This document shows positions 30,354 to 47,712 of a DNA stretch of 64,000 nucleotides, piece after piece (the first letter of the stretch is position 1; every line of letters begins with the position of its first letter). Origin of the DNA: a virus (taxonomy: Duplodnaviria; Heunggongvirae; Uroviricota; Caudoviricetes); the IMG/VR virus record IMGVR_UViG_3300032167_000010. The stretch is one strand, 5' to 3'. Both the position numbers and the translations under genes were made by a program. The notes under the pieces are model-generated. The model was not told the origin of the DNA. It saw nothing but the letters and a program-made list of their open reading frames with translations, and made no database searches.

Positions 30354-30363
30354 TGTATAATAT
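30354..30363 (+). promoter_or_regulatory. TGTATWATAT extended -10-like promoter (representative copy)
   Basis: Copies at 29334, 30354, 32594, 35809, 38921, 41377, 43434, 44879 and 61420, all intergenic and upstream of non-structural units. Confidence 0.65.
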
Positions 30364-30393
30364 AATGTAAGCAACTTGCGCATAAGCTTACAT

Positions 30394-30450
30394 AGAGCCT
30401 ATACTTATTTCTAACGTAAATTTTGGGAATTTAAAAGTGGCAGTTAGGCC
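30394..30450 (+). ncRNA. Bulged-helix ncRNA family, copy 1 (57 nt)
   Basis: AGAGCCTA-T-ACT-TATTTCT ... AGT-TAGGCC. Confidence 0.7.
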
Positions 30451-30547
30451 AAATAAGATACTACGTTTAGCGGTGCCTTACTTTGGTTTAAGATCAAAAA
30501 AGACATCGCTAATTTTATTTAAAATTATTTTTTCAGAGGTATAAAAT

Positions 30548-32530
30548 ATGACTAATATTAAAAACATTCTTATTTCTCGTCGCATGCTTTTAGCTGATGG
30601 TTTTTCAGTAAGTAATTCTAAAATTGAAAATGCATACCTTAATGCTTTTTTACTTTCAAATTTTGGTATTGTTGTAAATAAGCCGGAACTTTTAACTAAA
30701 GAAATGGTTAAAGACATATCAGATGTTTATAAACTTAATGTTCCTAAATCTTATTTTGCAAATCCACAGGATACTAAGTTTTATACTGCTGAAGAACTTT
30801 TAATAGAACAATGTGTTTCATATTTCCTTGCTTACGGTGCGGAAGAATCACATGTTCACGTTTTTGATAAAAAACTTCCTGATTATCCTGTAGGAAACGA
30901 AATTAAGCTCCGCGAGTTTAAAATCTTAAATCCGGAAGAAGCGATTATAGAACTTGTTGCAATCACAAAAGCTTATGCTGAATATAAACGTCCTTGGAGT
31001 TTAGATGAACAAAATGAATTTTTAGCTCTTTACTATAATGGACAAGGTTATTATGACTTAAATACTATGCCACTTCTTTGCGGAGATAATGCTGTCTTTA
31101 TGTTAGATAAAGATGTAAACTTTGCACAGTTTTTATTTAAGAAAGATGTTGTGAAACTTTCTGTTGCAAAAGTAGGTGAATGTAAAGACCTCGTACTTGA
31201 TTCTGATACTAAAAAGCTTATTAAAGCAATTATTCCACTTGTTAAGGATTGTCCTATGTCTAAGAAACAAGCTAAGTTCTTTAATAAACTTGTTCAAATT
31301 ACTGGTGCAAAGGCAAAGAAAGTAGATAATAAACAATCACCTAATAAACTTGCCATTGAAAAAATTAAAGCAGGTGATATTATTGGTGCAGCTGACATTT
31401 TTGCTAAGAATGGTTCTCTTCTTGAGCGTAATCTTAAGTTTCTTCTTTCACGTGCAAATCCTATCGAAGCAGCAGTAATTCTTAGTATGCTCTCAAATAA
31501 AAATCCTACAGTGCTTTATCAACTTATATCTACTATTAATGCGGATAATGAAGAAGCTCGTACATTCTCTTTCTTTGCTAAAAATAAGGTTAAAACTCAC
31601 GCAGAGACTGAGTACGAAGCTCGTTGGAGAAAGTCTCGTTTGAATGACGCTACTAAGAAACTTGTCCATGATATTTGCTTCGAAAAAATTGCGGAACATT
31701 ATAAAGCCTCAGAAAAACTTGGTAAGGTATATATTGATTCTAAGTTCTATCGTGTAGCAATGCCAGTTAATACTTCTGCATCGGGTAAGGGTATAGACGT
31801 TCCTACGACTGGCACAAGACTTCCTATTACTGGTACTAAGATTCGTTCTTTTGTACACTGGGAGAATGCTTTCGATATTGACTCTTCTGTAATTCTTGAA
31901 AAAGAAGATGGTAGATTAGATTCTATAAACTATAGTAGTTATTATTCTCGTAATTATCAAGGTGTAGCTCGTTTTTCTGGAGATATTACAGGTTCTAAAG
32001 GTACTGAATACTTTGATTTAGATTTAGAATCATTAAAAAATCAAGGTATTAAAAGAGTGATATTTACTTTCCATGGTTTTTGTTCAACTCTTAATGAAGG
32101 TGAAATTTACTGTGGTTATCAAAACAAAGAGGACTTCAATACTAAAGCTTGGGACCCTAAAAATATTGAGCTTAAGATTCATGTTAAAGGTGATAAACGC
32201 GCTTATATAGCTTTTGCCGTGGACCTTGAAACTATGGAAATTGTAGTTCTTAATTTAATGCGTGACGACGACTCTCGTGTTGTTTCTTCTAAAGATTTTG
32301 AAGCTATTAAAGCTTTTATAGACCCTGCAAAACTTGAACTTAATATGGGTTTAATTGCTGAATGGCGTGGTGAAGTTGTAGAAACTCCTGAAGAAGCCGA
32401 CGTTGTTTTTGCTGATGACTATATTTCTAATGTTGAAAATCTTCCAGTTTCAGAAGATGGTTCAGCTAGAGCGCAGACTGTAATTCGTTCGTTTGATGTT
32501 GAGAAGCTTAACGCAATCGCAAATGTTTAA
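30548..32530 (+). CDS. Helical-domain + C-terminal TerD-like domain protein (candidate RNA-binding partner)
   Basis: 660 aa; FVHW..DIDSS..FSGDITG..GTEYFDLD resembles the TerD fold; recalled similarity to the MXAN_6230/SCO0854-like family is unverified. Confidence 0.55.
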   Translation: MTNIKNILISRRMLLADGFSVSNSKIENAYLNAFLLSNFGIVVNKPELLTKEMVKDISDVYKLNVPKSYFANPQDTKFYTAEELLIEQCVSYFLAYGAEESHVHVFDKKLPDYPVGNEIKLREFKILNPEEAIIELVAITKAYAEYKRPWSLDEQNEFLALYYNGQGYYDLNTMPLLCGDNAVFMLDKDVNFAQFLFKKDVVKLSVAKVGECKDLVLDSDTKKLIKAIIPLVKDCPMSKKQAKFFNKLVQITGAKAKKVDNKQSPNKLAIEKIKAGDIIGAADIFAKNGSLLERNLKFLLSRANPIEAAVILSMLSNKNPTVLYQLISTINADNEEARTFSFFAKNKVKTHAETEYEARWRKSRLNDATKKLVHDICFEKIAEHYKASEKLGKVYIDSKFYRVAMPVNTSASGKGIDVPTTGTRLPITGTKIRSFVHWENAFDIDSSVILEKEDGRLDSINYSSYYSRNYQGVARFSGDITGSKGTEYFDLDLESLKNQGIKRVIFTFHGFCSTLNEGEIYCGYQNKEDFNTKAWDPKNIELKIHVKGDKRAYIAFAVDLETMEIVVLNLMRDDDSRVVSSKDFEAIKAFIDPAKLELNMGLIAEWRGEVVETPEEADVVFADDYISNVENLPVSEDGSARAQTVIRSFDVEKLNAIANV

Positions 32531-32608
32531 AAAAAATTAATAAATTATTAAATTATTAATAAAAAATATTTGCTAAATTTTATAGAATAATATTGTATAA
32601 TATAACAT

Positions 32609-32722
32609 AGAGCCAATGCTTATTTCTTTAGCCTTTTAAGCCGTGTGTCGTAGGTTCGAATCCTACCGTCAGCCTTCGGGTGGCGTAGCTCAGCGGTAGA
32701 GCAACGTAAATATAGCTTGGCC
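32609..32722 (+). ncRNA. Bulged-helix ncRNA copy 2 carrying a circularly permuted tRNA-Lys(UUU)-like domain (YrlA-like)
   Basis: Order is anticodon loop CTTTTAA, T arm, acceptor 3' strand, TTCG loop, acceptor 5' strand, D arm; closed by GCCAA/TTGGC. Confidence 0.85.
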
Positions 32723-32728
32723 AAAAAT

Positions 32729-32816
32729 CGGGGTGTGCTGAAACTGGCGAGACAGGGTGGACTTAAAATCCACTACATTAGAAACGTTGGTGGTTCGAAT
32801 CCACTCACCCCGACCA
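32729..32816 (+). tRNA. trnL: tRNA-Leu(TAA)
   Basis: Cloverleaf, GTGGA-CTTAAAA-TCCAC, long variable arm, CCA. Confidence 0.92.
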
Positions 32817-32823
32817 GTAATTT

Positions 32824-32899
32824 GGGCCTCTAGTTCAGCGGTTAGAGCCCCGGTCTCATAAACCGGTAGTCCACAGTTCGAATCTGTGGAGGCCCACCA
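32824..32899 (+). tRNA. tRNA-CAT (probably Ile2, possibly Met)
   Basis: CCGGT-CTCATAA-ACCGG, CCA. Confidence 0.88.
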
Positions 32900-33446
32900 G
32901 TAAATAAACAACTAAATAGGTGCTTTATTGCGGATAGACATATCTATGGTAACTTTTGATGAGTTGATGATTGTGTATTTTAAGAGTTCGAGAACAATGA
33001 TAAAGTTGAATGGTTTTTGAAAACAGCCTATTTTAGTCAATTAAATATCCCGTGCCTTCTCACGTCTATTAAGTTAGAATGACATGTGCCAGAGCTAACC
33101 TAGTCGGGGACACTAAAAGTGGAAGTCCTATACCCGTGGTAAGTCGCCTCTAATCAATCCGTGGAAATTAGAAACCGTAAGAAGTTAGAAAAGGGCTAGT
33201 CATAAAGCTGAATCTGGTGGCTAGATAAAAGGATATTTAATTTGTATAAATTCGTCTCGTAGTTCGTCGAGTTTAAATAACCGAACGTGTGCAATATATA
33301 CAGAGTCAATTGACCGAGTAGTGAAGCACGCACCTCTACCAATGAGGCGGTCGTACAACATAGCACAATCCAATGAGAAAAGGACAGAGGCTCTTAACTG
33401 TAGCCAGAAGATGTGAGAGTTGCTTCCTCACCCGCTAAAATTATTT

Positions 33447-33534
33447 GGAGAGATGTCAGAGTGGCCTAATGTGCACGCTTGGAAAGCGTGTGTACTGAAA
33501 GGTACCACAGGTTCGAATCCTGTTCTCTCCGCCA
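33447..33534 (+). tRNA. trnS: tRNA-Ser(GGA)
   Basis: CACGC-TTGGAAA-GCGTG, long variable arm, GCCA. Confidence 0.93.
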
Positions 33535-34084
33535 GTGCGTTTTTGTTATATTTTTCGTAATAAAAAAAATAAAATATAGCTTAAATTGATAGGAACTAAT
33601 GCACGAATATCTAATGGAGTCATTTTAGGAATGATGTTGATATAGTTAGGGTAAGCATTAAAGTACTTCTTATTGTGTAGGTTAACATGCAGATAAGCGT
33701 TATGGCCCTACCGATACGTTAAATCGGGGAACAGTGTTTGTGGGGATACTATATTTACTGAGATTAATGATCTTGTCTAGAGTTCAAGTATTTTAAGAGC
33801 GCGACACTTAAGCTCTTCTGTACTCAGCAGTTTATAAAAGAACGAACAAAAGAGTAACAACAACTTAATAAGTAAGTATAAATCAATTGAGGTGTCCATC
33901 AAGCAGAGGCTTGTTTGGAGGACAGAGCTACCCGCGACTTGGATGAAATAGAGTCTGAAATCAAGCGGCCAAGAAGGTCTTGAAAAAGATATGGTAGCAG
34001 GAAGTGGCGAGGCGATAGCAGGTCAACTCAAGAGTACCTAGGTTATTAGTAAATTGAGGAAGCTGAAAATTAATTGTTGATTAT

Positions 34085-34162
34085 GCGGGATTGATGTTTT
34101 AATGGCTAGCATTTCTGCCTTCCAAGCAGATCGTGAGGGTTCGAGTCCCTTATCCCGTTCCA
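34085..34162 (+). tRNA. trnG: tRNA-Gly(TCC)
   Basis: TCTGC-CTTCCAA-GCAGA, TCCA. Confidence 0.92.
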
Positions 34163-34510
34163 GTATATCTTGGATAAAATTCTAGATACCAAGAAACTTC
34201 GAATATATTGAATAAGAAGGCTGAGTCCGTCGGTACAAGGCAATATGAGAGAATGATCAACGGACTACTCTCAAAATTATTTTTTTGGGCTGGTCATAAG
34301 ATCTAGGTCCACCAATACGGGAGTTTTCCTGTTATTTAGTTGTTAGCTTAGTAAGTCGTAGGCCGGACAAATACGTGTAGCCCCCGGTTATTGCGAGAGT
34401 CGAACAGCGCAACGGGGTGGTTGGCAACAACTAGTCGAAAGATGTAGATAAGTTCATTACACGTGTTTATTTATAATACTCGATTCTCTCAAAGGAAACT
34501 AGAGAGACGT

Positions 34511-34586
<76 letters not shown>

Positions 34587-34874
34587 ATTTGGGTAGAAGG
34601 TAGTCGCTTGAAATACAGTTGAGCCTCTAAAATACGCTCTTATATACGGCGAGGAATAGTATATAATATAATGTAAAGTTAAATAAGGTGCCACGAAGCT
34701 TTATAAATAATCTTTGCTGTGTTAATAAACGGGAAACTGTTTTACTCGAGGTGAGCTTATAAAAGGGTCAGTAGCTGTGGTAAATGGAACGAGATAAACA
34801 GCCTTATATTTATGTAAAATATTTCTAAGGAGGTAATCATTATGCTATAACTAAATTTATAAGGAGTTATCGTA

Positions 34875-35234
34875 ATGAAACCAAAACACAAATATTTTAG
34901 AAATCAGCGCTATAAGAACTCGCTTGAAAGAAAGTATAACAACGGATATAACGAAAGTTATCCAAGTAATATTGTTTTCTTAACAAAAGAACAAGACCCA
35001 CGTGCTAAAAGGGAAGCCGCTTGGTGGTGGAGCTATGACTTTAAGAAGAAAACACATTACAAATATTATGCTAGACCTGAAGTTCCTTATACTGTTATGG
35101 AAGAACACTATAAACCCGATAGAACTAAGCATTTTTTCAAGAAACATTCAAATAGAGCTGTAAGACGTACAAAAGACGCTTATAACGGCGGAAGCTGTAA
35201 AAAAGTTTTTGATTTATGGTGGACATTGTTTTAA
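34875..35234 (+). CDS. Basic hypothetical protein within the tRNA island
   Basis: 119 aa, AAGGAG RBS, followed by a hairpin. Confidence 0.7.
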   Translation: MKPKHKYFRNQRYKNSLERKYNNGYNESYPSNIVFLTKEQDPRAKREAAWWWSYDFKKKTHYKYYARPEVPYTVMEEHYKPDRTKHFFKKHSNRAVRRTKDAYNGGSCKKVFDLWWTLF

Positions 35235-35263
35235 GTCTTGGCTAGTTTTAACTAGCCTTATTT

Positions 35264-35339
35264 AGGGGTGTCGTATAGTTGGTTAGTACACAAGACTTTG
35301 ACTCTTGCAGGGTTAGTTCGAGTCTAGCCGCCCCTGCCA
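35264..35339 (+). tRNA. trnQ: tRNA-Gln(TTG)
   Basis: CAAGA-CTTTGAC-TCTTG, GCCA. Confidence 0.9.
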
Positions 35340-35428
35340 GATGCTGAGTATGACTATCCTTCAACAGAAAACAGTACGTCATTCTATCACAATATGAATG
35401 AAGCACAAACAAAAGAAGGGATTTATAT

Positions 35429-35549
35429 CACGACTTAGTTCATAGGTAAGAGCACCCAAATCCCAGGGAAGAGAGAAGCGTTGAAGCTGATTACTAGCTA
35501 GAATTGGCAGAGCTGAAGAGGAGCATCGTCGTAGGTGCAGTCGTGTCAA
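35429..35549 (+). ncRNA. Free-standing ~120-nt tRNA-like RNA, paralogue of the tRNA-Thr insert
   Basis: CACGACT/AGTCGTG acceptor-like stem, D arm, CCC-AAATCCCA-GGG hairpin, T-like arm. Confidence 0.7.
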
Positions 35550-35618
35550 TTATTAAATTAATAATTTATTAAAAAATTATTAGCTAAATTAATTAGATAA
35601 AGTTAAGGAGTATATAAC

Positions 35619-35714
35619 ATGAAAAAGATTATTTTTGCCAAAACATTAAAAAATAACAATAGTAGTGTTATGCCATTTTATCGTAAAGCCAGAGACCCAG
35701 TATTCCAGTGTTAA
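35619..35714 (+). CDS. Putative 31-aa peptide MKKIIFAKTLKNNNSSVMPFYRKARDPVFQC
   Basis: AAGGAG RBS, downstream of a GCTAAATTA motif. Confidence 0.4.
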   Translation: MKKIIFAKTLKNNNSSVMPFYRKARDPVFQC

Positions 35715-35825
35715 GAATTTTTATAGTAGATAAAGTATCTTAGCGCTTGGGATTATAAAAAATTCTGAGCGCTTTTTATTTTTATTATTAAAATTTACAT
35801 GAGAGTATTGTATAATATATTATAA

Positions 35826-35959
35826 GCGCCTGTAGCTCAGTTGGCAGAGCACGTGACTTGTTTGAGTAGCATAAGTAATGCGATATTATGTGAGTTCAAA
35901 TCTTACCTCAAGCACCATTAATCACGGTGTCCCGAGTTCGAATCTCGGCAGGCGCACCA
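35826..35959 (+). tRNA. trnK: tRNA-Lys(TTT) interrupted at 34/35 by a 58-nt mini-tRNA (35860-35917)
   Basis: Exons of 34 nt and 42 nt give 76 nt with CGTGA-CTT|TTAA-TCACG. Confidence 0.9.
35860..35917 (+). ncRNA. Anticodon-arm-less mini-tRNA nested in tRNA-Lys
   Basis: GTTTGAG/CTCAAGC stem, D arm GCAT-AAGTA-ATGC, T arm GTGAG-TTCAAAT-CTTAC, ACCA. Confidence 0.88.
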
Positions 35960-36209
35960 AAGAGGGCTATTTCCAAGCCCTGCTGGTTTGCTCGGCCGTT
36001 ATTGGTATTTAATGGAAATAAGTATTAATAGATAAAGTACGATAATCTTTATCCCTGGTTATGCAGGTTAATATAGAGGTAAGCGAGTGGTTTCCTGCGC
36101 ATTCCTACATATCAAATTCGGCGAGGAGATGGTTTGGTTTCTACTAACCAAATAACTTAGTAGACTATCTAGAGTAATATTCCGGGGATAGTTAAATAGT
36201 AGAATATAT

Positions 36210-36318
36210 GTGAGAGTAGCCAAGTAGTAAGGCCACCCGACGGGGTTACAAAGTGAGGTGCAAGTCCCACTGAAAGCATAGGGCGTACGGATCGTTGGTG
36301 CAAATCCAACCTCTCACA
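36210..36318 (+). ncRNA. tRNA-like RNA with two T-loop hairpins and no CCA
   Basis: GTGAGAG/CTCTCAC stem, D arm, TGCAAGT and TGCAAAT loops. Confidence 0.6.
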
Positions 36319-36324
36319 ATTTAT

Positions 36325-36399
36325 AGGGGATTGGTGTTAATGGCAGCATAGGGGTCTCCAAAACCTTTGGTTAGAGTTCAAATCTTTAATCCCCTGCCA
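36325..36399 (+). tRNA. trnW: tRNA-Trp(CCA)
   Basis: GGGGT-CTCCAAA-ACCTT, GCCA. Confidence 0.9.
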
Positions 36400-36549
36400 G
36401 GGCAGTTATAATGTGGTGAAGAATGGTCTGCCGAAGCAAAATCCGTAGGGTCATGAGGTATGGATACTCCTCGATTAATATAAGTATGCAAATTGAAAAT
36501 AGGCCTTAAGTAAATAAGTGAAAATATTAATAAAATTATCCATATTTTT

Positions 36550-36625
36550 GCAGGATTAGCTCAGTTGGGAGAGCAATTGTCTTACAAGCAATGGGTCGGC
36601 GGTTCGAGCCCGTCATTCTGTACCA
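36550..36625 (+). tRNA. trnV: tRNA-Val(TAC)
   Basis: ATTGT-CTTACAA-GCAAT, ACCA. Confidence 0.92.
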
Positions 36626-36883
36626 GTTGAGTTCGGATATAGCGAACTTTTGAAATGCTTAAGCATACTAGTAAATACTTAATCAAAGTAAATTTAGTAG
36701 TGGAATGTAATGTGGAAAAAGCTTTGACTCCGATACCATTTCACTCAACACCATTCAGTTCTGGGGTAAGTTAGTTGAACCGGTTATACTAACAACCATA
36801 TGTGCGTAGAATATGGATTTAACCTGACAGGCGGATATTCCTGTAGATGCAGAAAGGCTGCGAACTGAGACCATTTTAATTAC

Positions 36884-37000
36884 ATGTCAGTGGCGGAAAA
36901 ATCCTGCAGACCAAAGACAGTAGGTGGATAGACGTAACCCTGTTAAGGGTGAAGAGTCTTGCAAGCTCTTATAAAGGTTCAAATCCTTTCTGACATACCA
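36884..37000 (+). ncRNA. Atypical type-II tRNA-like RNA with D-loop insertion and 6-nt anticodon loop
   Basis: ATGTCAG/CTGACAT-ACCA, T arm AAAGG-TTCAAAT-CCTTT, ACCC-TGTTAA-GGGT. Confidence 0.7.
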
Positions 37001-37116
37001 AGGGCAAACAGTTATCACTTTCATTAGAGCCCTAGATAAAAGTTCCTGAAAGTGAAAGTTTTTCTTTTTCACAGTAGCTTGGTTTTATGATGACTTAAAA
37101 AACACAAACTATGATT

Positions 37117-37192
37117 CTAGGTATAGCACAATTGGATGTGCATCGCCCTTCTAAGGCGACGGTTGTAGGTTCGAGCCCTGCTACCTAGACCA
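37117..37192 (+). tRNA. trnR: tRNA-Arg(TCT)
   Basis: TCGCC-CTTCTAA-GGCGA, ACCA. Confidence 0.93.
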
Positions 37193-37199
37193 AAAGTAT

Positions 37200-37277
37200 G
37201 CCTCGGTAGCTCAGTTCGGTAAGAGCACTAGACTGAAAATCTAGACGTCGGCGGTTCAAATCCACCCTGAGGCACCA
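37200..37277 (+). tRNA. trnF: tRNA-Phe(GAA)
   Basis: CTAGA-CTGAAAA-TCTAG, ACCA. Confidence 0.93.
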
Positions 37278-37411
37278 AAAGCGGAAAAAGTACAATTCTG
37301 CTCAGCAACGCGTAGTATAGGTAGAGGTAGAATTACGCCAAAACGAGGTCATATGCCGTGGAGGAAACCCTGACACCGACGAGACTGGTTCATCAGGAGC
37401 GTTGTGAATAT

Positions 37412-37484
37412 GCCAGATGTGCTAGGAACACAAGGAGGTCTCATACACCACCTGTGCTTGGAGCGTAACCAAGATCTGGTACCA
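37412..37484 (+). ncRNA. Degenerate CAT-anticodon tRNA-like RNA
   Basis: GCCAGAT/ATCTGGT-ACCA, CTCATAC loop, non-canonical T loop AGCGTAA. Confidence 0.6.
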
Positions 37485-37570
37485 ATAGTAAATATAGGTT
37501 CGAGCCCTGTATTGGGGAGCCTTAAGTGGAACAACTCCCCGATTAGTTTAATTGGACTAAAACTTACTAT
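37485..37570 (+). ncRNA. Second circularly permuted tRNA-like RNA, open at the anticodon end
   Basis: ATAGTAA/TTACTAT closing stem, T arm, ATTGGGGAG/CTCCCCGAT stem, D arm. Confidence 0.75.
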
Positions 37571-38012
37571 GCACGAAACCGCGGGAAGTGTGGTAACCGG
37601 CGGTCTAAAAATGAAGGATCACCAAACCTTATACATGACAACGCTGAAATCGCCTCTATGATGTATAAGTGAGTCCAATAGCCTTGACAGTAAGACTGGG
37701 GTTGAATGTTACCTTACATATTACGATATGGTAAGATACTAAAAGCTGTCTGAAATACCTCTGGCAAGAGATTTAGTAGTGACTCTATAACATAAACTAC
37801 TTGGTAGCGTATGTGCGGAAGGCAAGGCAGTGTTTTTACATTGTTCCTTGGATACTATAAGAAATTATAGTAGTACAGGCTATGTTGAATAGTCTTAAAT
37901 AAAAACCCGTGAATGTCAGTAAATGTCCCGAAAGTATCAACAGAGAAGCTGACTAATCTCGTTCTAGGTGTAGGATAGGGACGAGCAGGTTTACGGGGCT
38001 CCTGCTCAATAT

Positions 38013-38087
38013 GGGGAATGTAGTGTAAAGGTAGCACCTCAGTTTGTGGCACTGATAGTTAGAGTTCGATCCTCTACGTTCCCACCA
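38013..38087 (+). tRNA. trnH: tRNA-His(GTG) with encoded G-1 and A73
   Basis: TCAGT-TTGTGGC-ACTGA; 3' end CGTTCCC-A-CCA. Confidence 0.9.
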
Positions 38088-38104
38088 GTTAAGTTATATT
38101 ATAT

Positions 38105-38190
38105 GGGTAGGTAGCGAAGAGGTTAAACGCTGCGGGCTGTAAACCCGCCCCTGTTTAGGTTCGCTGGTTCGAATCCAGCCCTGCCCACCA
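38105..38190 (+). tRNA. trnY: tRNA-Tyr(GTA)
   Basis: GCGGG-CTGTAAA-CCCGC, ACCA. Confidence 0.93.
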
Positions 38191-38387
38191 ATACGACTAG
38201 ACTCATAAGTCGTTCAATAGAGTACAAAGCCTTGGTTGCGGGAGTCGCAATTACACAAGGATGCAGAGACTCGCCCTTATAAAGGGAATTAAATAAATTG
38301 AGTATGGGCATGATTAGGGACTTTCCACCCATGAAGATAAAGCGGAAAGGATAACGTTATGACGCCTGGGAATAGACCAGGATGCAT

Positions 38388-38464
38388 ACGCTCTTAGCTC
38401 AATTGGATAGAGCTTTGCGCTACGGACGCAACGGTTAGGGGTTCGAGTCCCTTAGAGCGTGCCA
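38388..38464 (+). tRNA. trnR: tRNA-Arg(ACG)
   Basis: TTGCG-CTACGGA-CGCAA, GCCA. Confidence 0.93.
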
Positions 38465-38672
38465 AGCCTTCTTACAGAGATAACCATCACGTTGGCACTG
38501 CTGAAGAATAAAACCAGGAGATTTTGGCGCTCCTGTTTGGATGTTGAAACTTCCTATTGTTAATCTGTTTGAGACTCAAAACAGAGCGTTTACTCTGGTA
38601 ATCGTTGGAAAACCTATGAGGTAGTATAACTGACTCAGTGTTATATGACTGCAGGGAATAGTTCTGCACTAT

Positions 38673-38750
38673 CGATGTGTAGTTCAGTTGGTTTAGAGCA
38701 CCTGTCTGATACACAGGAAGTCGGTGGTTCGAACCCACCCACATCGACCA
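38673..38750 (+). tRNA. trnI: tRNA-Ile(GAT)
   Basis: CCTGT-CTGATAC-ACAGG, ACCA. Confidence 0.88.
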
Positions 38751-38762
38751 AAAATTTAATAT

Positions 38763-38838
38763 CTGGGTGTGGCGCAGTTGGTAGCGCGCTTGAATGGGGT
38801 TCAAGAGGTCGGGAGTTCAAGTCTCTTCACTCAGACCA
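38763..38838 (+). tRNA. trnP: tRNA-Pro(GGG)
   Basis: CTTGA-ATGGGGT-TCAAG, ACCA. Confidence 0.9.
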
Positions 38839-38937
38839 TAAAAATATTATACTTTATTAAATTTGTTTTTAAATTATATGCTAAATTAATAGTACCCTGA
38901 TTAAAAATTAAATAATTTATTGTATAATATAATATCT

Positions 38938-39031
38938 GGAGGGGTACTCAAGTTGGTGAAGAGGACGCACTGCTAACGCGTTAGGGCGGTGATGAGCCGT
39001 CGCGAGAGTTCGAGTCTCTCCCCCTCCGCCA
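38938..39031 (+). tRNA. trnS: tRNA-Ser(GCT)
   Basis: ACGCA-CTGCTAA-CGCGT, long variable arm, GCCA. Confidence 0.92.
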
Positions 39032-39066
39032 ATTACTATATATTAAAATTTATTTTGGGGCTATTA

Positions 39067-39378
39067 ATGTATACTATAATTTATAAAGGTAAGTCAATCT
39101 CTTACAACGAAAATAATATTCATATAAAAAATTCATATAAAGTTAAAAATAGCGCCGAAATGGAAGAAGCTTTAAGATATGTTGTAGCCAGAGCTGCTAA
39201 ACGCGGAATTACCTATAAACGCAGTATGGCTAGTTGGATTAGAGAATGGAAAACACATAATTTTTTATGTGGTATGAAATACAAAGTAGCTCAAACTTCT
39301 TCAGTAGACCTTAATGAGAATGAGAGTTTATTTAGACGTTTAAGTTATTTTATATTAGCTCTATTTTATAGAGGCTAA
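39067..39378 (+). CDS. Hypothetical protein (start moved to the ATG downstream of tRNA-Ser)
   Basis: MYTIIYKG..., 103 aa; the longer ORF call overlaps the tRNA. Confidence 0.6.
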   Translation: MYTIIYKGKSISYNENNIHIKNSYKVKNSAEMEEALRYVVARAAKRGITYKRSMASWIREWKTHNFLCGMKYKVAQTSSVDLNENESLFRRLSYFILALFYRG

Positions 39379-39385
39379 ACCTTAC

Positions 39386-39462
39386 GGGCCCATATATCAG
39401 CTGGCTAGATGGTTTCCCTTGCAAGGAAAAGGTCGTCGGTTCGAATCCGACTGGGTCCACCA
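39386..39462 (+). tRNA. trnA: tRNA-Ala(TGC)
   Basis: G3:U70 pair, TTTCC-CTTGCAA-GGAAA, ACCA. Confidence 0.93.
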
Positions 39463-39587
39463 CTAGTAGATAAGTAACAAATATCAGCACTACAACAAGC
39501 CTACGTAGGTTAGTATAGCGTATTAATCTATGTATGAAATTAAATGCTAGATGTGTAGCGAGTGCAAGACTTTATTGTACGTTTTAT

Positions 39588-39670
39588 GGGGGTGTGGTGA
39601 AATTGGCAGACACGCCAGACTTAGGATCTGGTGCGTAAGCGTGCAGGTTCAACTCCTGTCACCCCCACCA
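39588..39670 (+). tRNA. trnL: tRNA-Leu(TAG)
   Basis: CCAGA-CTTAGGA-TCTGG, ACCA. Confidence 0.93.
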
Positions 39671-39679
39671 AAATAATAT

Positions 39680-39754
39680 GGTCCTTTAGTATATCGGTTA
39701 GTATAGCGGACTGTCACTTCGCAGAGAGGAGTTCAACTCTCCTAAGGACCGCCA
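39680..39754 (+). tRNA. trnD: tRNA-Asp(GTC)
   Basis: GCGGA-CTGTCAC-TTCGC, GCCA. Confidence 0.92.
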
Positions 39755-39918
39755 ATAAACACAATATAACGAAGAATATTGAGGTTAATGTATTCTAAGG
39801 TAACTGATAGGGGTAACCCACCAAAGAGCTAATAGGATTTTTCTAATGCTGAAGTTACATAGGTATTAGACTTTGTTGACCTAACTCTACCTAAGGTCAT
39901 TAGTATTGTGTTATATTT

Positions 39919-39993
39919 TGGGGAGTCGCCAAGCGGTAAGGCCCTGGATTCTGACTCCAGTACTCGTAGGTTCGAATCCTGCTTCCCCAGCCA
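39919..39993 (+). tRNA. trnQ: tRNA-Gln(CTG)
   Basis: CTGGA-TTCTGAC-TCCAG, GCCA. Confidence 0.93.
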
Positions 39994-40054
39994 TAGTATG
40001 AGGTTTCGTGGGAAGTGCCCCGAGTAAAACTAGCAACAAATTACCTCACTTTAT

Positions 40055-40131
40055 GCCCAGTTGGAGAAGAGGCTTAACTCACCACCCTTTCACGGTGGCA
40101 TTCGCGTGTTCGAATCACGTACTGGGTACCA
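40055..40131 (+). tRNA. trnE: tRNA-Glu(TTC)
   Basis: CCACC-CTTTCAC-GGTGG, ACCA. Confidence 0.92.
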
Positions 40132-40208
40132 GGAAGTTGTTGGTTGTATAATACTTTAAACCTTCACGGCTTGACCTACGCCGTACAGTAAGTAGGTTAT
40201 AAACAGAT

Positions 40209-40283
40209 TGGTAGGTAGCCTAGCGGATAGGCAGCAGACTGTTAATCTGCCTTAGGTGGGTTCAACTCCCTCCCTACCAGCCA
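40209..40283 (+). tRNA. trnN: tRNA-Asn(GTT)
   Basis: GCAGA-CTGTTAA-TCTGC, GCCA. Confidence 0.9.
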
Positions 40284-40344
40284 CTAAATTAAAACTTATA
40301 TCTCTAAGACAATAAAATATTTTATATAAAGGAGATTGTGTATT

Positions 40345-40566
40345 ATGTTAAAACACAAATATCTATTCTTAGAGATCAGTGCAAATGATGATCAAGTATT
40401 GTCAAAAAGAATCCTTAAATCAAGAGAATCAGGTATGAGATTAATGGAAAAAGAACTAACTAGTCTTGATGCTGAAGTAAGAGAGTTGATTTATAGAGAT
40501 GCTAGAAAACACTTGCAAGAATTTATTTGCACTAATGGATTAGTATTCATTATAAATAGGATCTAA
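40345..40566 (+). CDS. Hypothetical protein
   Basis: AAGGAG RBS before the ATG at 40345; 73 aa. Confidence 0.55.
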   Translation: MLKHKYLFLEISANDDQVLSKRILKSRESGMRLMEKELTSLDAEVRELIYRDARKHLQEFICTNGLVFIINRI

Positions 40567-40580
40567 TCCAATCTCTATAT

Positions 40581-40642
40581 TATCAGTTAGTGTACGGAGC
40601 ACTCCAATGGCAGAGTAAGTTCAATTCTTACAATGATAACCA
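40581..40642 (+). ncRNA. Free-standing anticodon-arm-less mini-tRNA
   Basis: TATCAGT/AATGATA-ACCA, D arm GTGT-ACGGA-GCAC, T arm GTAAG-TTCAATT-CTTAC. Confidence 0.7.
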
Positions 40643-40771
40643 AGCGCTTATTTGAGATAGTCACTAGGACAATAAGAACTGTTGCATAAAGACTATTATG
40701 GTGAACAGTGGTGTAAGCTAAGACAGAGACTTACATAGGTGAGTACCAGATAATCAAATCTCACCTTACCT

Positions 40772-40846
40772 GGCCTCATGGTCAAGCGGTTAAGACGCCG
40801 CCCTCTCACGGCGGAATCAGGAGTTCGATTCTCCTTGGGGCTACCA
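40772..40846 (+). tRNA. trnE: tRNA-Glu(CTC)
   Basis: CCGCC-CTCTCAC-GGCGG, ACCA. Confidence 0.92.
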
Positions 40847-40878
40847 TAAAAACAGTAAATAATTTAAATATATAAATT

Positions 40879-40935
40879 AGAGCCTGAACTTATTTCTGAG
40901 GATAAAAATAAATATGGATTTAACTTAGTCAGGCC
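40879..40935 (+). ncRNA. Bulged-helix ncRNA family, copy 3 (57 nt)
   Basis: AGAGCCTG-A-ACT-TATTTCT ... AGT-CAGGCC. Confidence 0.7.
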
Positions 40936-40951
40936 ATTATAAAAATAACTT

Positions 40952-41027
40952 AGAGCTCATACTTATTTCTATTGAAGATACATATACTCCTGGACGTATG
41001 TGCCAGGCACTAAAGATTAGTTGAGCC
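40952..41027 (+). ncRNA. Bulged-helix ncRNA family, copy 4 (76 nt)
   Basis: AGAGCTCA-T-ACT-TATTTCT ... AGT-TGAGCC. Confidence 0.7.
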
Positions 41028-41047
41028 TGTTATTTTTAATTCAATAT

Positions 41048-41123
41048 TGCAGAGTAGAGAAGTGGTCATCTCGCCGTCCTCATAAGTCGGAAATCATTGG
41101 TTCGAATCCAATCTTTGCACCCA
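41048..41123 (+). tRNA. trnM: tRNA-Met(CAT), initiator-like D arm, subtype uncertain
   Basis: CCGTC-CTCATAA-GTCGG, T arm, CCA. Confidence 0.82.
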
Positions 41124-41127
41124 TTAT

Positions 41128-41322
41128 GCTTCAGTAGCTCAACTGGCAGAGCAGCTGACTTCGTCGATTAGTTTAATTGGGAAAACAACCGAATCCCAGG
41201 TAAAAGACAACCTTTGATAACAATTACGATCAAATTGTTTAGGTTAAGATAAACAAGTTCAAATCTTGTATCGGCGTCCAGTAATCAGCAGGTTGATGGT
41301 TCAATTCCGTTCTGAAGCTCCA
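41128..41322 (+). tRNA. trnT: tRNA-Thr(TGT) interrupted at 34/35 by a 119-nt tRNA-like RNA (41162-41280)
   Basis: Exons of 34 nt and 42 nt give 76 nt with GCTGA-CTT|GTAA-TCAGC; acceptor GCTTCAG/CTGAAGC-TCCA. Confidence 0.9.
41162..41280 (+). ncRNA. tRNA-like RNA nested in tRNA-Thr
   Basis: CGTCGAT/ATCGGCG-TCCA, D arm GTTT..AAAC, T arm ACAAG-TTCAAAT-CTTGT. Confidence 0.87.
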
Positions 41323-44874: not shown

Positions 44875-44919
44875 ATATTGTATTATATAATATAAAAATA
44901 ATTATTGAGGTTAAATAAT

Positions 44920-46341
44920 ATGAGTTATTATGCTATTGTAACTGCTTTAAAAAACGTGCGTAAGCACCCTAATGCAGACAGACTTCAACTTGCCTCAGTA
45001 TTTGGTAATACTATTTGTGTTGACTTAACTTATACTGATGGCCAACTTGGTGTATATTTTCCAACAGGTGGACAGCTTTCAGTAGCTTTTGCTGAGGCAA
45101 ATAACTTGCTTCGTAAAAAAGATGCCGAAGGAAATAATATCGGTGGATATATGGACCCAGATAAAAGAAATGTAGCGGCTATTAAACTAAGAGGTGAGAA
45201 GTCTGATGGGCTTTTCCTTCCTTTGAATAGTCTCGAAACTTTTGGTGATATTTCTACTTTGAAGGCTGGCGACCGAATCGACGTGTTTAATGGTACAGAG
45301 ATTTGCACCAAGTACATACCTAAAATTAATATTAGACGTGGCAGTTTTTCTGAAGGAAATCGTACTAGAAAAACTAAGGCGCCTATTGCTCCTTTATTTG
45401 CAGAACACGCAGACACTGAACAGCTTGCCTATAACTTGGGTATGTTTAAGGTCGGTGATGAATTAGAGTTTACTCTAAAAATGCACGGGACTTCTCAACG
45501 TACCGGTCATCTTAAAGTTTTGACTGGTTATAAGAGAACTTTTTTTGATAAGCTTTTTAAAAGACCTGGCACACCTATTTATGATTGGGGCTATGTTTCT
45601 GGTACCCGTCGTGTAGTTCTTGATACTTTTGATGGTGGTTTCTACGGCTCAAATGAATTCAGAGAACAACATCATAATGCTTTTGTTGGAAAGCTTTGGA
45701 AGGGTGAAACTGTTTATTACGAAGTAGTTGGTTTTACTCATACTGGTGCGCCTATTATGGGTAATGGTAATAACGAAAAACTTGGTAAAGACTTTGTAAA
45801 GCAGTATGGTAAAGAAACTGTATTTAGCTACGGCTGTAATCCAACTGGTGAGTGCATTATGTGTGGTGAAGATGAACTTAGCGCTTTTAAAGTTCCAGTT
45901 GATGTTCCAATATCAGATACTTATGTTTACCGTATGACAATGACTAATGAAGATGGTGAAATTGTTGAGTATACGCCAGACTTTATAAGGTATCGTTGTG
46001 AACAAATGGGCGTTAAATGTGTTCCTGTTTTCGGTAAAGCTACAATTAGTGAAGATAGACTACATTTTGTAACACAAGACGGTTATGACCATGACTATTT
46101 AATTGGTGACGGTACTATTGGTGATATGGTAGTAAAGTGTGCTGAAGACTTTTATGCTGGACCTGACCCTGTGGGTAAGACACACACTAGAGAAGGTGTT
46201 GTTGTTCGTATTACTAATAGACCTAAATTCGCAGCAGTAAAACATAAAAACTTTGAATTTAAGGTCTTAGAAGGTATCATTTCTGAAAAGCTTACAGAAT
46301 CAACCACAGAAATAGCAGAAGATGTTCTTGCGGAAATGTAA
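44920..46341 (+). CDS. ATP-dependent RNA ligase (DRB0094/Rnl2-like) with N-terminal OB-fold tRNA-binding-like domain
   Basis: N-terminal HPNADRL..IKLRGEKSDG; nucleotidyltransferase motifs TLKMHGTS, YYEVVG, REGVVVR, KHKNFEF. Confidence 0.85.
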   Translation: MSYYAIVTALKNVRKHPNADRLQLASVFGNTICVDLTYTDGQLGVYFPTGGQLSVAFAEANNLLRKKDAEGNNIGGYMDPDKRNVAAIKLRGEKSDGLFLPLNSLETFGDISTLKAGDRIDVFNGTEICTKYIPKINIRRGSFSEGNRTRKTKAPIAPLFAEHADTEQLAYNLGMFKVGDELEFTLKMHGTSQRTGHLKVLTGYKRTFFDKLFKRPGTPIYDWGYVSGTRRVVLDTFDGGFYGSNEFREQHHNAFVGKLWKGETVYYEVVGFTHTGAPIMGNGNNEKLGKDFVKQYGKETVFSYGCNPTGECIMCGEDELSAFKVPVDVPISDTYVYRMTMTNEDGEIVEYTPDFIRYRCEQMGVKCVPVFGKATISEDRLHFVTQDGYDHDYLIGDGTIGDMVVKCAEDFYAGPDPVGKTHTREGVVVRITNRPKFAAVKHKNFEFKVLEGIISEKLTESTTEIAEDVLAEM

Positions 46342-46353
46342 TAAGAGGTTTAT

Positions 46354-46605
46354 ATGAGCAAAAATACTAATAGTACAAATGGTGGAATTGGAGTAAGTAT
46401 GGTGTTATTTTTAATTTTTTTAGTTTTGAAACTTGTTGGGGTTATTAATTGGTCATGGTGGTGGGTGACTTCTCCACTTTGGATTACTACTAGTATCATA
46501 AGTTTAGTAATCGTAGTAGCATATATTTATTGTTGTATTGATGATGCTAAAGAAAGGCGCAGAATCAACAAATCAAGACGAGGTAATAAGAATGAAAAAG
46601 ACTAA
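46354..46605 (+). CDS. Small membrane protein
   Basis: LVLKLVGVINWSWWWVTSPLWI; two transmembrane segments. Confidence 0.7.
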   Translation: MSKNTNSTNGGIGVSMVLFLIFLVLKLVGVINWSWWWVTSPLWITTSIISLVIVVAYIYCCIDDAKERRRINKSRRGNKNEKD

Positions 46606-47401
46606 AGATTCACTTGGCGATCGCATGAAGGAGTTTTATGAGAATCGTTCTAAGATGTACCTCACAAGACGAACTCCTGTAATTATTCGTTTAGATGGTA
46701 AGGCTTTTCACAGCTTTACAAAAGGTTTTAAGAGACCTTACGATGAAATCTTCCATGAAGCAATGAATAACACAATGAAGTATCTTTGTGCTAATATTCA
46801 GGGTTGTAAACTTGGTTATACGCAGTCTGACGAGATTACACTTCTCTTGACTGACTATACTACTCTTACAACTGATGCTTGGTTTGGTTATGGCGTTCAG
46901 AAAATGTGCTCTATTGCAGCTTCGATGGCGACTTTAATGTTTAATAAGTATTTTAGAACTGCCGTTAATCGCCACTTTGAGGGCGCTATTGGCATGGATG
47001 ACTACCACAAGACCATGTGCCTAGCTCGTGATAAAGGCGCAATGTTTGATGCCCGTTGTTTTAATATTCCAAAAGAAGAAGTAACTAACTGCTTTATTTG
47101 GAGGCAGCAAGACGCAACTCGAAATGCTATTCAAATGTTAGGTCAAACTCATTTTTCTCATAGAGAATTACAAGGTAAAAGTTGCAATGATATTCAAGAC
47201 ATGTTGATGTTGCAAAAAGGTATTAATTTTAACGATATGCCTATTGAATTCAAGCGTGGTGTTTGTTGCATTAAAAAAGAAGTTGAATGCACTGATAGAC
47301 TTATAGGTTATAAGCATGATTGGGTAATAGATACAGAGATTCCAATTTTTACTCAGGATAGAAATTATATTGAACAATATTTACTAGAAAAAGAAATCTA
47401 A
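46592..47401 (+). CDS. thg1: tRNA(His) guanylyltransferase Thg1-like protein (3'-5' polymerase)
   Basis: GDRMKEFYE, IRLDGKAFH, YTQSDEI, FDARCF and WRQQDATRN motifs. Confidence 0.9.
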   Translation: MKKTKDSLGDRMKEFYENRSKMYLTRRTPVIIRLDGKAFHSFTKGFKRPYDEIFHEAMNNTMKYLCANIQGCKLGYTQSDEITLLLTDYTTLTTDAWFGYGVQKMCSIAASMATLMFNKYFRTAVNRHFEGAIGMDDYHKTMCLARDKGAMFDARCFNIPKEEVTNCFIWRQQDATRNAIQMLGQTHFSHRELQGKSCNDIQDMLMLQKGINFNDMPIEFKRGVCCIKKEVECTDRLIGYKHDWVIDTEIPIFTQDRNYIEQYLLEKEI

Positions 47402-47420
47402 AATTAAGAGGTGTTTAAAA

Positions 47421-47702: not shown

Positions 47703-47712
47703 GGTTAATTTA

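Follow-up and report, generated by a model that had tools for sequence, protein, structure and literature searches.

A family of small RNAs with a covarying handle and tRNA-like cargos is linked to a helical–TerD protein gene in phages and Clostridia

The closest described relatives of the RNAs reported here are the bacterial Y RNAs YrlA and YrlB and their protein Ro60 (Rsr), found for example in the Salmonella rsr-yrlBA-rtcBA operon (Rfam RF02553; Chen et al. 2014, PMC4201824; bioRxiv 10.1101/312249). The Rsr-site motif, GNCGAAN0-1G, lies on the 5' strand of the stem, and phages are known to carry Y RNA genes (PMC4201824). The locus studied here belongs to a phage of the Caudoviricetes (IMG/VR record IMGVR_UViG_3300032167_000010), of which we analyzed a stretch of 64,000 nt, hereafter the window. 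A second point of comparison is the TerD family. Classical TerD proteins are single-domain proteins of ~190 aa encoded in tellurite-resistance (ter) operons, and we know of no RNA partner for them.

How does the locus compare with the Y RNA–Ro60 system? It shares with that system small RNAs whose paired 5' and 3' ends form a stem—protein-binding in Y RNAs and putatively so here—and several paralogous RNAs with one common stem, at least one of which has a T arm, D arm, and looped acceptor arranged as a permuted tRNA-like domain. In both, the RNA genes adjoin one that encodes a large helical protein with a metal-binding C-terminal domain, recur beside RtcB and other RNA-repair genes, and are present in phages with tRNA clusters. 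We call the closing stem the handle and the variable insert the cargo, and we refer to the protein as P0001 (Table 1).

Scanned over the whole window, the pattern AGAGCNNNNRCTTATTTCT was matched without mismatches at 30394, 32609, 40879, and 40952, always on the + strand; shuffled sequence gave a mean of 0.43 matches, and four were reached in 0 of 100 shuffles. The 5-bp helices of copies 1 to 4 are GCCTA/TAGGC, GCCAA/TTGGC, GCCTG/CAGGC, and GCTCA/TGAGC, each followed by a 1-nt bulge (T, T, A, and T, respectively) and then by ACT/AGT or GCT/AGC. The 5' strands of the handles read GCCUAUACU, GCCAAUGCU, GCCUGAACU, and GCUCAUACU. An initial annotation had proposed this four-copy family, and its coordinates, helices, and bulge were all found again in the sequence; the interior lengths it gave (29, ~85, 29, and 48 nt) are essentially right when set against the 30, 87, 30, and 49 nt between TATTTC and AGY. 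A covariance model (R1), trained on 36 short-cargo copies that include copies 1 and 3 of the window and leave copies 2 and 4 outside the training set, finds these four copies and no others in the 64 kb (E 1.6e-13 to 2.3e-7; next match, E 0.28). Written as RNA, the handles are AGA-GCCUA-U-ACU-UAUUUC ... AGU-UAGGC-C (copy 1), GCCAA-U-GCU/AGC-UUGGC (copy 2), GCCUG-A-ACU/AGU-CAGGC (copy 3), and GCUCA-U-ACU/AGU-UGAGC (copy 4), and the minimum-energy folds of copies 2 and 4 recover them, bulge included. Copy 1 belongs to the leader of the gene for the TerD-family protein and stops 98 nt short of its start codon (30548). Copy 2 opens a tRNA array that contains copies 3 and 4, the former starting 32 nt past tRNA-Glu(CUC) and the latter followed 20 nt downstream by tRNA-Met. 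The three genes listed at 44905..48429 would form a tRNA-repair context, and among 80 bacterial loci carrying a P0001 homologue, 8 have RtcB no more than 4 kb away.

Table 1. Positions of the features in the window
Feature	Position	Strand	Evidence or remark
Extended -10 box TGTATAAT	30354..30361	+	Upstream of copy 1; read from sequence
7-bp hairpin	30366-30392		Between -10 box and copy 1 handle
Copy 1	30394..30450	+	R1 66.9 bits, E 1.6e-13
Strong hairpin (30467-30512), then UUUUAUUU	30467..30520	+	Between copy 1 and protein start codon
P0001, 660-aa protein	30548..32530	+	N-terminal ~400 aa helical, TerD-like beta-sandwich 428-587, small C-terminal domain
Extended -10 box TGTATAAT	32594..32601	+	Upstream of copy 2; full 6/6 match, 3-10 nt upstream
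Copy 2	32609..32722	+	R1 43.2 bits, E 7e-8
tRNA array, 25 or more genes	32729..41320	+	ARAGORN and Rfam tRNA
Copy 3	40879..40935	+	R1 58.2 bits, E 1.9e-11
Copy 4	40952..41027	+	R1 41.0 bits, E 2.3e-7
RNA ligase	44905-46341	+	PHROG 6.1e-61
Thg1-like tRNA-His guanylyltransferase	46538-47401	+	PHROG 1.7e-93
Metallophosphoesterase	47713-48429	+	PHROG 2.3e-24

Is the handle a structured RNA? Throughout the phage clade it consists of 5 bp, one bulged base, and 3 bp in the order AGA-5 bp-bulge-RCU-UAUUUC; the frame is invariant, with an unpaired AGA before the helix, a C after it, and the pyrimidine box UAUUUC following its 5' strand. In a selection-free pairing test, we took 68 distinct exact 5' motifs, every one of them on the + strand, from 18 non-redundant phage sources and sought a partner within 300 nt; a perfect 8-bp partner was present for 67 of them, versus 5.9% with shuffled 5' strands. 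The same test gave 113 of 126 bacterial 5' motifs versus 17.6% in the control. In 61 distinct phage sequences pairing holds in 488 of 488 cells (100%), compensatory changes occur at six of the eight phage pairs (89 cells), and the pairing collapses whenever the register is slid, with cell counts that overstate the number of independent events because related sequences share ancestry. Bacterial handles show compensatory changes at seven of eight pairs. RNAalifold recovers the helix unaided, and the single-sequence folding energies of the copies do not reach significance (z -0.5 to -1.3): support for the handle helix is comparative, not thermodynamic.

Strand provides a further line of evidence. 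All 83 model matches and all 194 exact 5' motifs are in the gene-strand orientation, and G.U pairs, which make up 11% of bacterial helix cells, would be A.C mismatches on the opposite strand. The single orientation and the one-strand tolerance of G.U pairs mark the element as RNA rather than DNA. An operator, a recombination site, or a small mobile element with terminal inverted repeats could also flank variable DNA with an inverted repeat that recurs in the genome, sometimes beside promoters, as is seen here. The arms of an operator or transposon end would stay constant, however, whereas these vary between copies yet match within each copy, and the cargos contain tRNA arms; we give a DNA-level motif almost no credence. 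The initial annotation had held every substitution to be compensated and had read the copies as RNAs with a common protein-binding handle and interchangeable cargo, naming a DNA operator without covarying homologues as the opposing case. The comparative data bear out the RNA reading, with covarying homologues in phages and bacteria alike. The two groups share an RNA family defined by structure, strand, and gene linkage.

How strict is that linkage? A handle was present in all 24 phage loci fetched via P0001 (39–82% identity), at most ~500 nt upstream of the gene start in 23 of them, and when all IMG/VR contigs were scanned for the exact pattern, the matches were limited to this phage clade. 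Homologues of P0001 at 25–32% identity are carried by ~270 Clostridia species; a related handle precedes the gene in 68 of 80 bacterial loci, and the motif, sought with a crude pattern, is absent from 12. The bacterial handle (AGCUA-8 bp-UACUUC ... RAUAUC) occurs in one to four tandem copies, has an uninterrupted helix without a bulge, and is not detected by R1, a phage-clade model. All four window copies and the bacterial family have the same YU-UAYUUC box after a covarying helix of ~8 bp. Other tRNA clusters contain handles too, far from the TerD gene. In one related phage record of 230 kb, which CheckV rates as 100% complete although it breaks off within its tRNA array, a handle RNA is present but a P0001 homologue is not, even at the syntenic site next to DNA ligase; handle RNA may therefore work without a P0001-type protein or with a host-encoded homologue. 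The pairing of handle RNA and TerD protein was not found in Rfam or in the literature searched, and handle RNAs apparently form a large, undescribed RNA family of jumbo phages and gut and rumen Clostridia. The conserved gene neighborhood in phages and bacteria points to P0001 as their likely partner, in keeping with the early suggestion that the 30548 protein would bind them.

What kind of protein is P0001? Searches with its sequence returned nothing in Pfam (TROVE included), PHROG, or, by profile search, the PDB. Its relatives fall into more than 1000 clusters; among 50 of them, Pfam detected TROVE in none and TerD in only one (3.9e-4). The AF2 model is confident and two-part (pLDDT 92.7, pTM 0.92). 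Its C-terminal domain has the TerD fold (2qz7_B, Z 13.6, rmsd 2.2, 145 aa; 2kxt, Z 10.9; 145–147 aa across matches; Foldseek probability 1.0). The beta-sandwich and the acidic calcium-site motifs DxDxS, SGDxT, and ExxD are those of TerD-family proteins from ter clusters (2qz7, 2kxt, 3ibz), with D443, D445, S477, G478, D479, E487, and D490 invariant or nearly so in the 50 relatives. Unlike classical TerD proteins, P0001 fuses this domain to a helical domain of 400 aa, and its gene is associated with RNAs and with RNA-repair genes rather than with ter genes. The helical part contains three invariant arginines (R148, R294, and R338) and does not significantly match any RNA-binding fold. Foldseek with the isolated N-terminal model gave no match; in AlphaFold DB, the best matches were to a ZorC EH-domain protein (E 1.5e-8) and to DUF4132. 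In VIA-align, the sole whole-domain match is phage phiLo Ro60 (9l5y_B; 221 aa, model 1–405, chain 58–384), a weak one (Z 5.8, rmsd 4.9) that is tied with unrelated helical repeats and within noise.

Across the family, the cargos range from a permuted tRNA body and pieces with only a T arm to mimics of anticodon stem-loops and pseudoknot-like hairpins. Copy 1 carries an A/U-rich hairpin, UAAAU-UUUGGGA-AUUUA, that mimics an anticodon stem-loop with anticodon UGG and a G at position 37. Copy 2 encloses a circularly permuted, capped tRNA-Lys(UUU)-like body, running from a CUUUUAA anticodon-like loop through the variable region, T arm, UUCG-capped acceptor-like stem, and D arm to the 5' strand of the anticodon stem; its minimum-energy fold also recovers the T arm and capped stem. 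Lacking CCA, copy 2 cannot be charged. No clear structure was found in the 30-nt A/U-rich cargo of copy 3. The 49-nt cargo of copy 4 forms a hairpin (ACAUA.../...UAUGU) whose CCUGG loop can pair with a downstream CCAGG, a possible pseudoknot. Anticodon-stem-loop mimics, defined as a 7-nt loop Y-U-NNN-R-N closed by 4 bp or more, occur in 19 of 42 short cargos, orthologous copies included, versus 1.7 +/- 1.3 in shuffles (maximum 6 in 1000). In some bacterial handles the cargo is a T arm, acceptor, and D arm.

Could these be genuine Y RNAs of the YrlA/YrlB family that use Ro60/Rsr, perhaps the host's, with the TerD protein a mere neighbor? Copy 2 and its relatives are built like YrlA, with an end-formed stem, permuted tRNA-like body, and capped acceptor; phages can carry Y RNA genes, and one phage relative has the handle RNA without the TerD gene. 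YrlA is also the only non-tRNA Rfam family that copy 2 and its phage relatives match. All these matches, however, fall below the YrlA gathering cut-off of 69 bits and map to the tRNA-like cores: copy 2 scores 35.7 bits (E 1.3e-6), aligned on T arm, acceptor, and D arm only, and its relatives score 31.9–43 bits, mostly on model positions 23–86 only. Copies 1, 3, and 4 have no Rfam YrlA match; only copy 2 has the YrlA-type domain closed by an end-formed stem, and the other three, with other cargos, are comparable to YrlB-type partners. Copy 2 differs from YrlA in retaining an anticodon-like loop, and many handle cargos are bare anticodon-stem-loop or T-arm mimics, unlike those of Y RNAs. GNCGAA is found in none of the four handle 5' strands, which have instead the invariant UAYUUC box. 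TROVE (PF05731) has no match in five related phage genomes (95–100% complete) or in five Clostridia isolate genomes bearing the related locus, whereas the controls D. radiodurans and B. thetaiotaomicron do match. P0001 has a TerD beta-sandwich as its C-terminal domain where Ro60 has a von Willebrand A domain, and the linkage between RNA and TerD gene persists down to 25% protein identity. The lack of TROVE genes in the genomes checked, the absent Rsr-site motif, and the low YrlA scores speak against a Ro60/Y RNA system, and we consider this reading quite improbable. Of the Y-RNA-like interpretation in the initial annotation, the plan of a handle with variable cargo stands, and the link to Ro60 does not; the single bulged base, taken there as the Y RNA hallmark, is specific to the phage clade.

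The handle might alternatively be an RNA processing, stability, or regulatory element read by a host RNase or another factor rather than by the TerD protein: a cleavage mark or end protection in a polycistronic tRNA transcript, or an attenuator in the TerD-gene leader. Copies 3 and 4 do sit between tRNAs, and other handles lie far from the gene or in a genome without it. Copy 1, for its part, precedes a hairpin (-16.4 kcal/mol, z -3.2; as good in 1 of 200 shuffles) that, with the bases after it, resembles an intrinsic terminator or attenuator, missed by a simple terminator scan because internal loops interrupt its stem. Within this hairpin, CUUACUUUGG has a possible alternative partner in CCAAAUAAG, the segment immediately 3' of the copy 1 handle. 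RNAalifold predicts that second pairing from six close relatives, with compensatory changes absent. Such an element would leave unexplained the tRNA-mimicking cargos, the tandem arrays of one to four units before bacterial genes, the strict tie to one protein family across phages and Clostridia, and the -10 boxes of the copies themselves. Transcription from the box at 32594 would begin on the first base of copy 2 or immediately ahead of it, and TATAAT with at least five of six matches, ending 3–10 nt upstream, occurs at 30 of 72 handles in the phage family versus 12% of random positions, which suggests that these boxes act as promoters. We regard a processing or regulatory element as unlikely.

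We think it fairly probable that these RNAs form a modular small non-coding family in which the handle docks the helical–TerD protein and the cargo engages tRNA-recognizing factors; we infer that the copies are transcribed discretely, bind protein, and have this function. The ends of each RNA pair into the conserved closing helix, and the insert imitates part of a tRNA—an unchargeable permuted body, an anticodon stem-loop, or a T arm. The handle is most likely a docking site for P0001, and protein and RNA together may form a particle on the Ro60–Y RNA plan, built with a different protein. With P0001 gripping the handle, the cargo could recruit repair or processing enzymes or soak up tRNA-cleaving defense nucleases. 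Binding at copy 1, in the P0001 leader ahead of the terminator-like hairpin, could also feed back on P0001 synthesis.

Do the four elements in the window belong to one RNA family? A pattern scan with AGAGCNNNNRCTTATTTCT returned four exact matches, all on the + strand (copies 1 to 4), against a mean of 0.43 in shuffled sequences, where four matches were reached in 0/100 cases. Reading the sequences bears out the structure given in the initial annotation: a 5-bp helix that differs from copy to copy, then in every copy a 1-nt bulge and ACT/AGT or GCT/AGC, enclosing interiors that show no kinship between copies. We refer to the closing helix formed by the RNA ends, together with the UAUUUC box, as the handle and to the variable insert that it holds as the cargo. 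A covariance model of the phage handle (R1), trained on 36 short-cargo copies (mostly from related phages, together with window copies 1 and 3), recovers exactly copies 1 to 4 in the window, at E values between 1.6e-13 and 2.3e-7; neither copy 2 nor copy 4 was in the training set, and the next-best match has E 0.28.

Handle RNA genes and neighbouring features in the window
Feature	Position	Helix; interior	Setting or remark
637-aa protein gene	26855-28768		Upstream of the locus
7-bp hairpin TGTAAGC...GCTTACA	30366-30392		Between -10 box and first base of copy 1
Copy 1	30394 (+)	GCCTA/TAGGC; 30 nt	Before 660-aa gene; preceded by TGTATAAT
Strong hairpin and U tract	30467-30520		After copy 1; -16.4 kcal/mol, z -3.2
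660-aa protein gene	30548-32530 (+)		Between copies 1 and 2
Copy 2	32609 (+)	GCCAA/TTGGC; 87 nt	After 660-aa gene, at start of tRNA array; preceded by TGTATAAT
tRNA array	32729-41320		At least 25 tRNA genes
DUF3800-XI RNA motif (RF02975)	34286-34331		In tRNA array; sub-threshold
Matches to Rfam tRNA model	35860-35914; 41128-41319		Unusually short and long
Copy 3	40879 (+)	GCCTG/CAGGC; 30 nt	Within tRNA array, between tRNA-Glu and tRNA-Met
Copy 4	40952 (+)	GCTCA/TGAGC; 49 nt	Within tRNA array, between tRNA-Glu and tRNA-Met
RNA ligase, Thg1-like guanylyltransferase, metallophosphoesterase genes			Downstream of tRNA array

Several features of the surroundings deserve mention in their own right. 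The 7-bp hairpin ahead of copy 1 might stabilise the 5' end or form a processed leader; copy 2 has no counterpart of it, and a related locus (L016) shows a similar GTAAGC start after a TGTATAAT box. ARAGORN called no ordinary tRNA-Lys or tRNA-Cys in the tRNA array, and the DUF3800-XI match there scores 32.9 bits (cut-off 37.8; E 2.6e-4). The 637-aa protein carries BspA-type leucine-rich repeats (PF13306, 1.8e-24), and Eubacterium uniforme (L087) has a gene for a similar LRR_5 protein after its TerD-family gene. Among public sequencing runs, those listed as containing the window include six animal-faeces DNA runs, which may be its source, and no RNA run, a result that does not bear on expression.

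How widespread is the handle, and is it maintained as RNA? The 660-aa protein led us to 24 distinct phage loci (39-82% identity), in which R1 finds 83 copies, 83/83 on the gene strand. The window comes from a large phage: the protein neighbouring copy 1 is found on contigs reaching 444 kb, and the genomes of IMG/VR relatives measure 220-237 kb. Complete genomes carry one to seven strong copies, mainly in tRNA clusters and ahead of the protein gene, and the matches from an exact-pattern scan of all IMG/VR contigs are confined to this phage clade. Across 61 distinct phage handle sequences, pairing holds in 488/488 cells, with both-sided changes at 6/8 helix pairs (89 cells), and is lost when the partner strand is slid by 1-3 columns. 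Because this first alignment had been picked for pairing, we added a selection-free test, in which 67 of 68 distinct exact 5' motifs had a perfect 8-bp partner within 300 nt, compared with 5.9% for shuffled 5' strands; the opposite strand held 0/68 of these motifs. RNAalifold finds the helix unaided. The invariant features are an AGA preceding the helix, C-U closing the inner side of its 5' strand, a C following the helix and the box UAUUUC, which is UACUUC in one clade. The handles are a large, strand-specific, covarying RNA family. A DNA-level reading, whether as an operator—the alternative raised in the initial annotation—or as a transposon end, does not fit: the arms differ between copies yet match within each copy, all copies share one orientation and the helix admits G.U pairs. 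A related jumbo phage (IMGVR_UViG_3300031555_003626) carries a GOLLD RNA in its tRNA cluster (Rfam RF02032; L004:18531-19044; 156.3 bits for a cut-off of 150), with three handle RNAs ~440 nt downstream of it; an Rfam search of the window found no GOLLD RNA.

We next consider what the handles hold. Copy 2 encodes a tRNA-like RNA in circularly permuted order: the handle is followed by a CUUUUAA anticodon-like loop, a variable region, a T arm, a UUCG-capped acceptor-like stem, a D arm and the second anticodon-stem strand. Some family members carry a T arm alone. Many short cargos resemble anticodon stem-loops: a stem of at least 4 bp with a 7-nt loop of the form Y-U-NNN-R-N occurs in 19/42, compared with 1.7 +/- 1.3 in shuffles (maximum 6 in 1000); this enrichment is real but overstated, since the counts take in orthologous copies. 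The commonest anticodon-like loop in short cargos is the Lys loop CUUUUAA, and the cargo of copy 1, UAAAU-UUUGGGA-AUUUA, presents a Pro-UGG-like loop. Cargo is interchangeable, as had been proposed from the window alone, with a constant handle holding a tRNA body, a T arm or an anticodon-stem-loop mimic.

Is this a Ro60-Y RNA system, given that the initial annotation had likened the family to Y RNAs? To our knowledge, Ro60-Y RNA is the only well-studied case of a protein reaching different targets via interchangeable small RNAs with a common stem, and the function of such particles in bacteria is, as far as we know, still unclear. The tRNA-like core of copy 2 does align to the Rfam model of the bacterial Y RNA YrlA, but at 35.7 bits it falls under the cut-off of 69, and its relatives in other phages score 32-43 bits. 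The TROVE domain of Ro60/Rsr has no Pfam match in five related phage genomes that are 95-100% complete, an absence that refers to these relatives and not to the window's own full genome; the controls, D. radiodurans and B. thetaiotaomicron, were positive. A TROVE gene is likewise absent from five isolate genomes with the bacterial locus described below. The handles also lack GNCGAAN0-1G, the Rsr-site motif of YrlA and YrlB (PMC4201824). Judged by these genomes and motifs, the handle RNAs are probably not a Ro60/Y RNA system. Rfam has no family for the handle, and a full-text search, with Burroughs & Aravind 2016 (NAR 44:8525) and Sim et al. 2020 outside its reach, returned no paper that connects a TerD protein to Y-like RNAs, TROVE, RtcB or tRNA-like molecules.

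What kind of protein is encoded between copies 1 and 2? Sequence searches of Pfam, PHROG and PDB give no match for the 660-aa product. Its AlphaFold model (pLDDT 92.7, pTM 0.92) comprises a helical part of ~400 aa and a TerD beta-sandwich at residues 428-587 (2qz7_B, Z 13.6), in which the acidic motifs of TerD are conserved. The protein family exceeds 1000 clusters. Foldseek and VIA searches with the whole model recover the TerD domain only, and the helical part folded alone has no significant PDB match in Foldseek. In VIA-align, Ro60 of Thermus phage phiLo is the sole chain that aligns across the whole helical domain (221 residues), at a Z of 5.8 that lies within helical-repeat noise. The nearest folds in the AlphaFold DB are a ZorC EH-domain protein and DUF4132, and a protein language-model search with the N-terminal part returned its own cluster only. 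Listeria phage CKA15 has an Rsr-like gene with abundant ncRNAs ahead of it (PMC12282133), a case for which no tie to the present family emerged. In an isolated-phage collection, DNA searches gave tRNA matches only, and protein searches gave four weak TerD-region matches with no Listeria phage among them.

Homologues 25-32% identical to the phage protein are found in ~270 Clostridia species genomes, including cultured strains, that belong to Lachnospiraceae, Oscillospiraceae and Eubacterium and are chiefly of rumen or gut origin. Culturable carriers of the bacterial locus include Eubacterium ruminantium FB3002, E. uniforme ATCC 35992 and the Lachnospiraceae strains AC2029, AC2031 and C6A11. R1 has no match near these TerD-family genes, and the upstream RNAs of 14 bacterial loci fall in no Rfam family. 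A handle was first recognised by eye in the 300 nt upstream of the gene and then quantified: AGCUA, a bulge-less 8-bp helix, UACUUC, cargo, the second strand and RAUAUC, in one to four tandem copies, several with a T arm, capped acceptor and D arm. At least one motif is present in 68/80 bacterial loci, and all 126 distinct 5' motifs in these loci lie on the gene strand, 113 of them with a perfect partner (17.6% in the control). Seven of the eight pairs covary (121 cells) in 43 aligned copies, with G.U in 11% of cells. That the phage and bacterial RNAs form one family is supported by the Y-U-UAYUUC box after the 5' strand and by the neighbouring gene, both of which they have in common; the bulge of the phage handle is a local variant. 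The conserved, unpaired AGCUA and RAUAUC face each other at the helix base (columns 1-7 and 61-67 of the bacterial-handle alignment, A7), and the bases immediately outside them seem to co-vary, which suggests a structured internal loop bounded by an outer helix, possibly a protein-binding motif; in the phage variant, AGA and C take the place of AGCUA and RAUAUC. An RtcB gene is found within 4 kb of the TerD-family gene in 8/80 loci, sometimes on both sides, recalling rsr-yrlBA-rtcBA. In two Lachnospiraceae/Eubacterium loci (L090, L093), RtcB genes flank the TerD-family gene together with its upstream handle RNAs. An ordinary tRNA gene 100-200 nt downstream of the TerD-family gene (L084:6158-6232, L091:6129-6201) echoes the phage arrangement of gene and tRNA array, and L128 has a TnpB/IS605 OrfB gene after the TerD-family gene.

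One exception to the gene-RNA linkage emerged. A 230-kb relative (IMGVR_UViG_3300028591_000080, G006; L076, L077), whose contig ends inside its tRNA array, has one handle RNA between tRNA-Ala and tRNA-Asn and no TerD-family homologue, including at the syntenic site beside DNA ligase, where genes for a 191-aa unknown and a 145-aa GGDEF-domain protein are found instead. Either this handle RNA can work with something else or the phage uses a host copy.

Because the neighbourhood is kept across this divergence while Ro60 is absent from the genomes searched, a dedicated protein-RNA pair is the best explanation and the most likely one. The initial annotation had cast the handle as a protein-binding site, with the 660-aa protein as a candidate partner; the linkage of gene and RNA stands, in phages and bacteria alike, whereas binding, like transcription and function, is what we infer from sequence. 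On this view, the helical + TerD protein would dock on the handle, and the cargos would engage tRNA-recognising factors in a setting of RNA repair or of phage-host conflict over tRNA. Copy 1 sits in the leader of the protein gene, followed by the hairpin and U tract, and RNAalifold indicates that the segment right after its handle can pair with the hairpin interior, with no compensatory changes. This placement and alternative pairing suggest, as a hypothesis that covariation does not back, feedback control through a leader attenuator.

Tentatively, and with low confidence, we envisage a second, Ro60-independent particle of Y-RNA type, widespread in Clostridia and their jumbo phages, in which the helical + TerD protein would hold handle RNAs displaying capped tRNA bodies, anticodon stem-loops (mostly with the Lys-UUU loop) and T arms. 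Phage cargos might then act as decoys for, or sensors of, host defences that cleave tRNAs; alternatively, the RNAs could serve as a scaffold on which broken tRNAs reach the ligase, Thg1-like enzyme and phosphoesterase of the phage. The leader copy would couple particle activity to synthesis of the protein.

A parallel system with another protein would show that the design of a handle plus tRNA-mimic cargo arose or diversified beyond Ro60. The system described here occurs in hundreds of Clostridia from gut and rumen and in their jumbo phages, again tied to RtcB and tRNA-repair genes, and has escaped annotation, the RNAs eluding tRNA finders and Rfam and the protein being labelled just "hypothetical" or "TerD family." Eubacterium ruminantium, E. 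uniforme and Lachnospiraceae isolates would offer culturable entry points to particle function, and the anticodon-loop cargos suggest a direct, testable role for the phage RNAs in the phage-host contest over tRNA cleavage.
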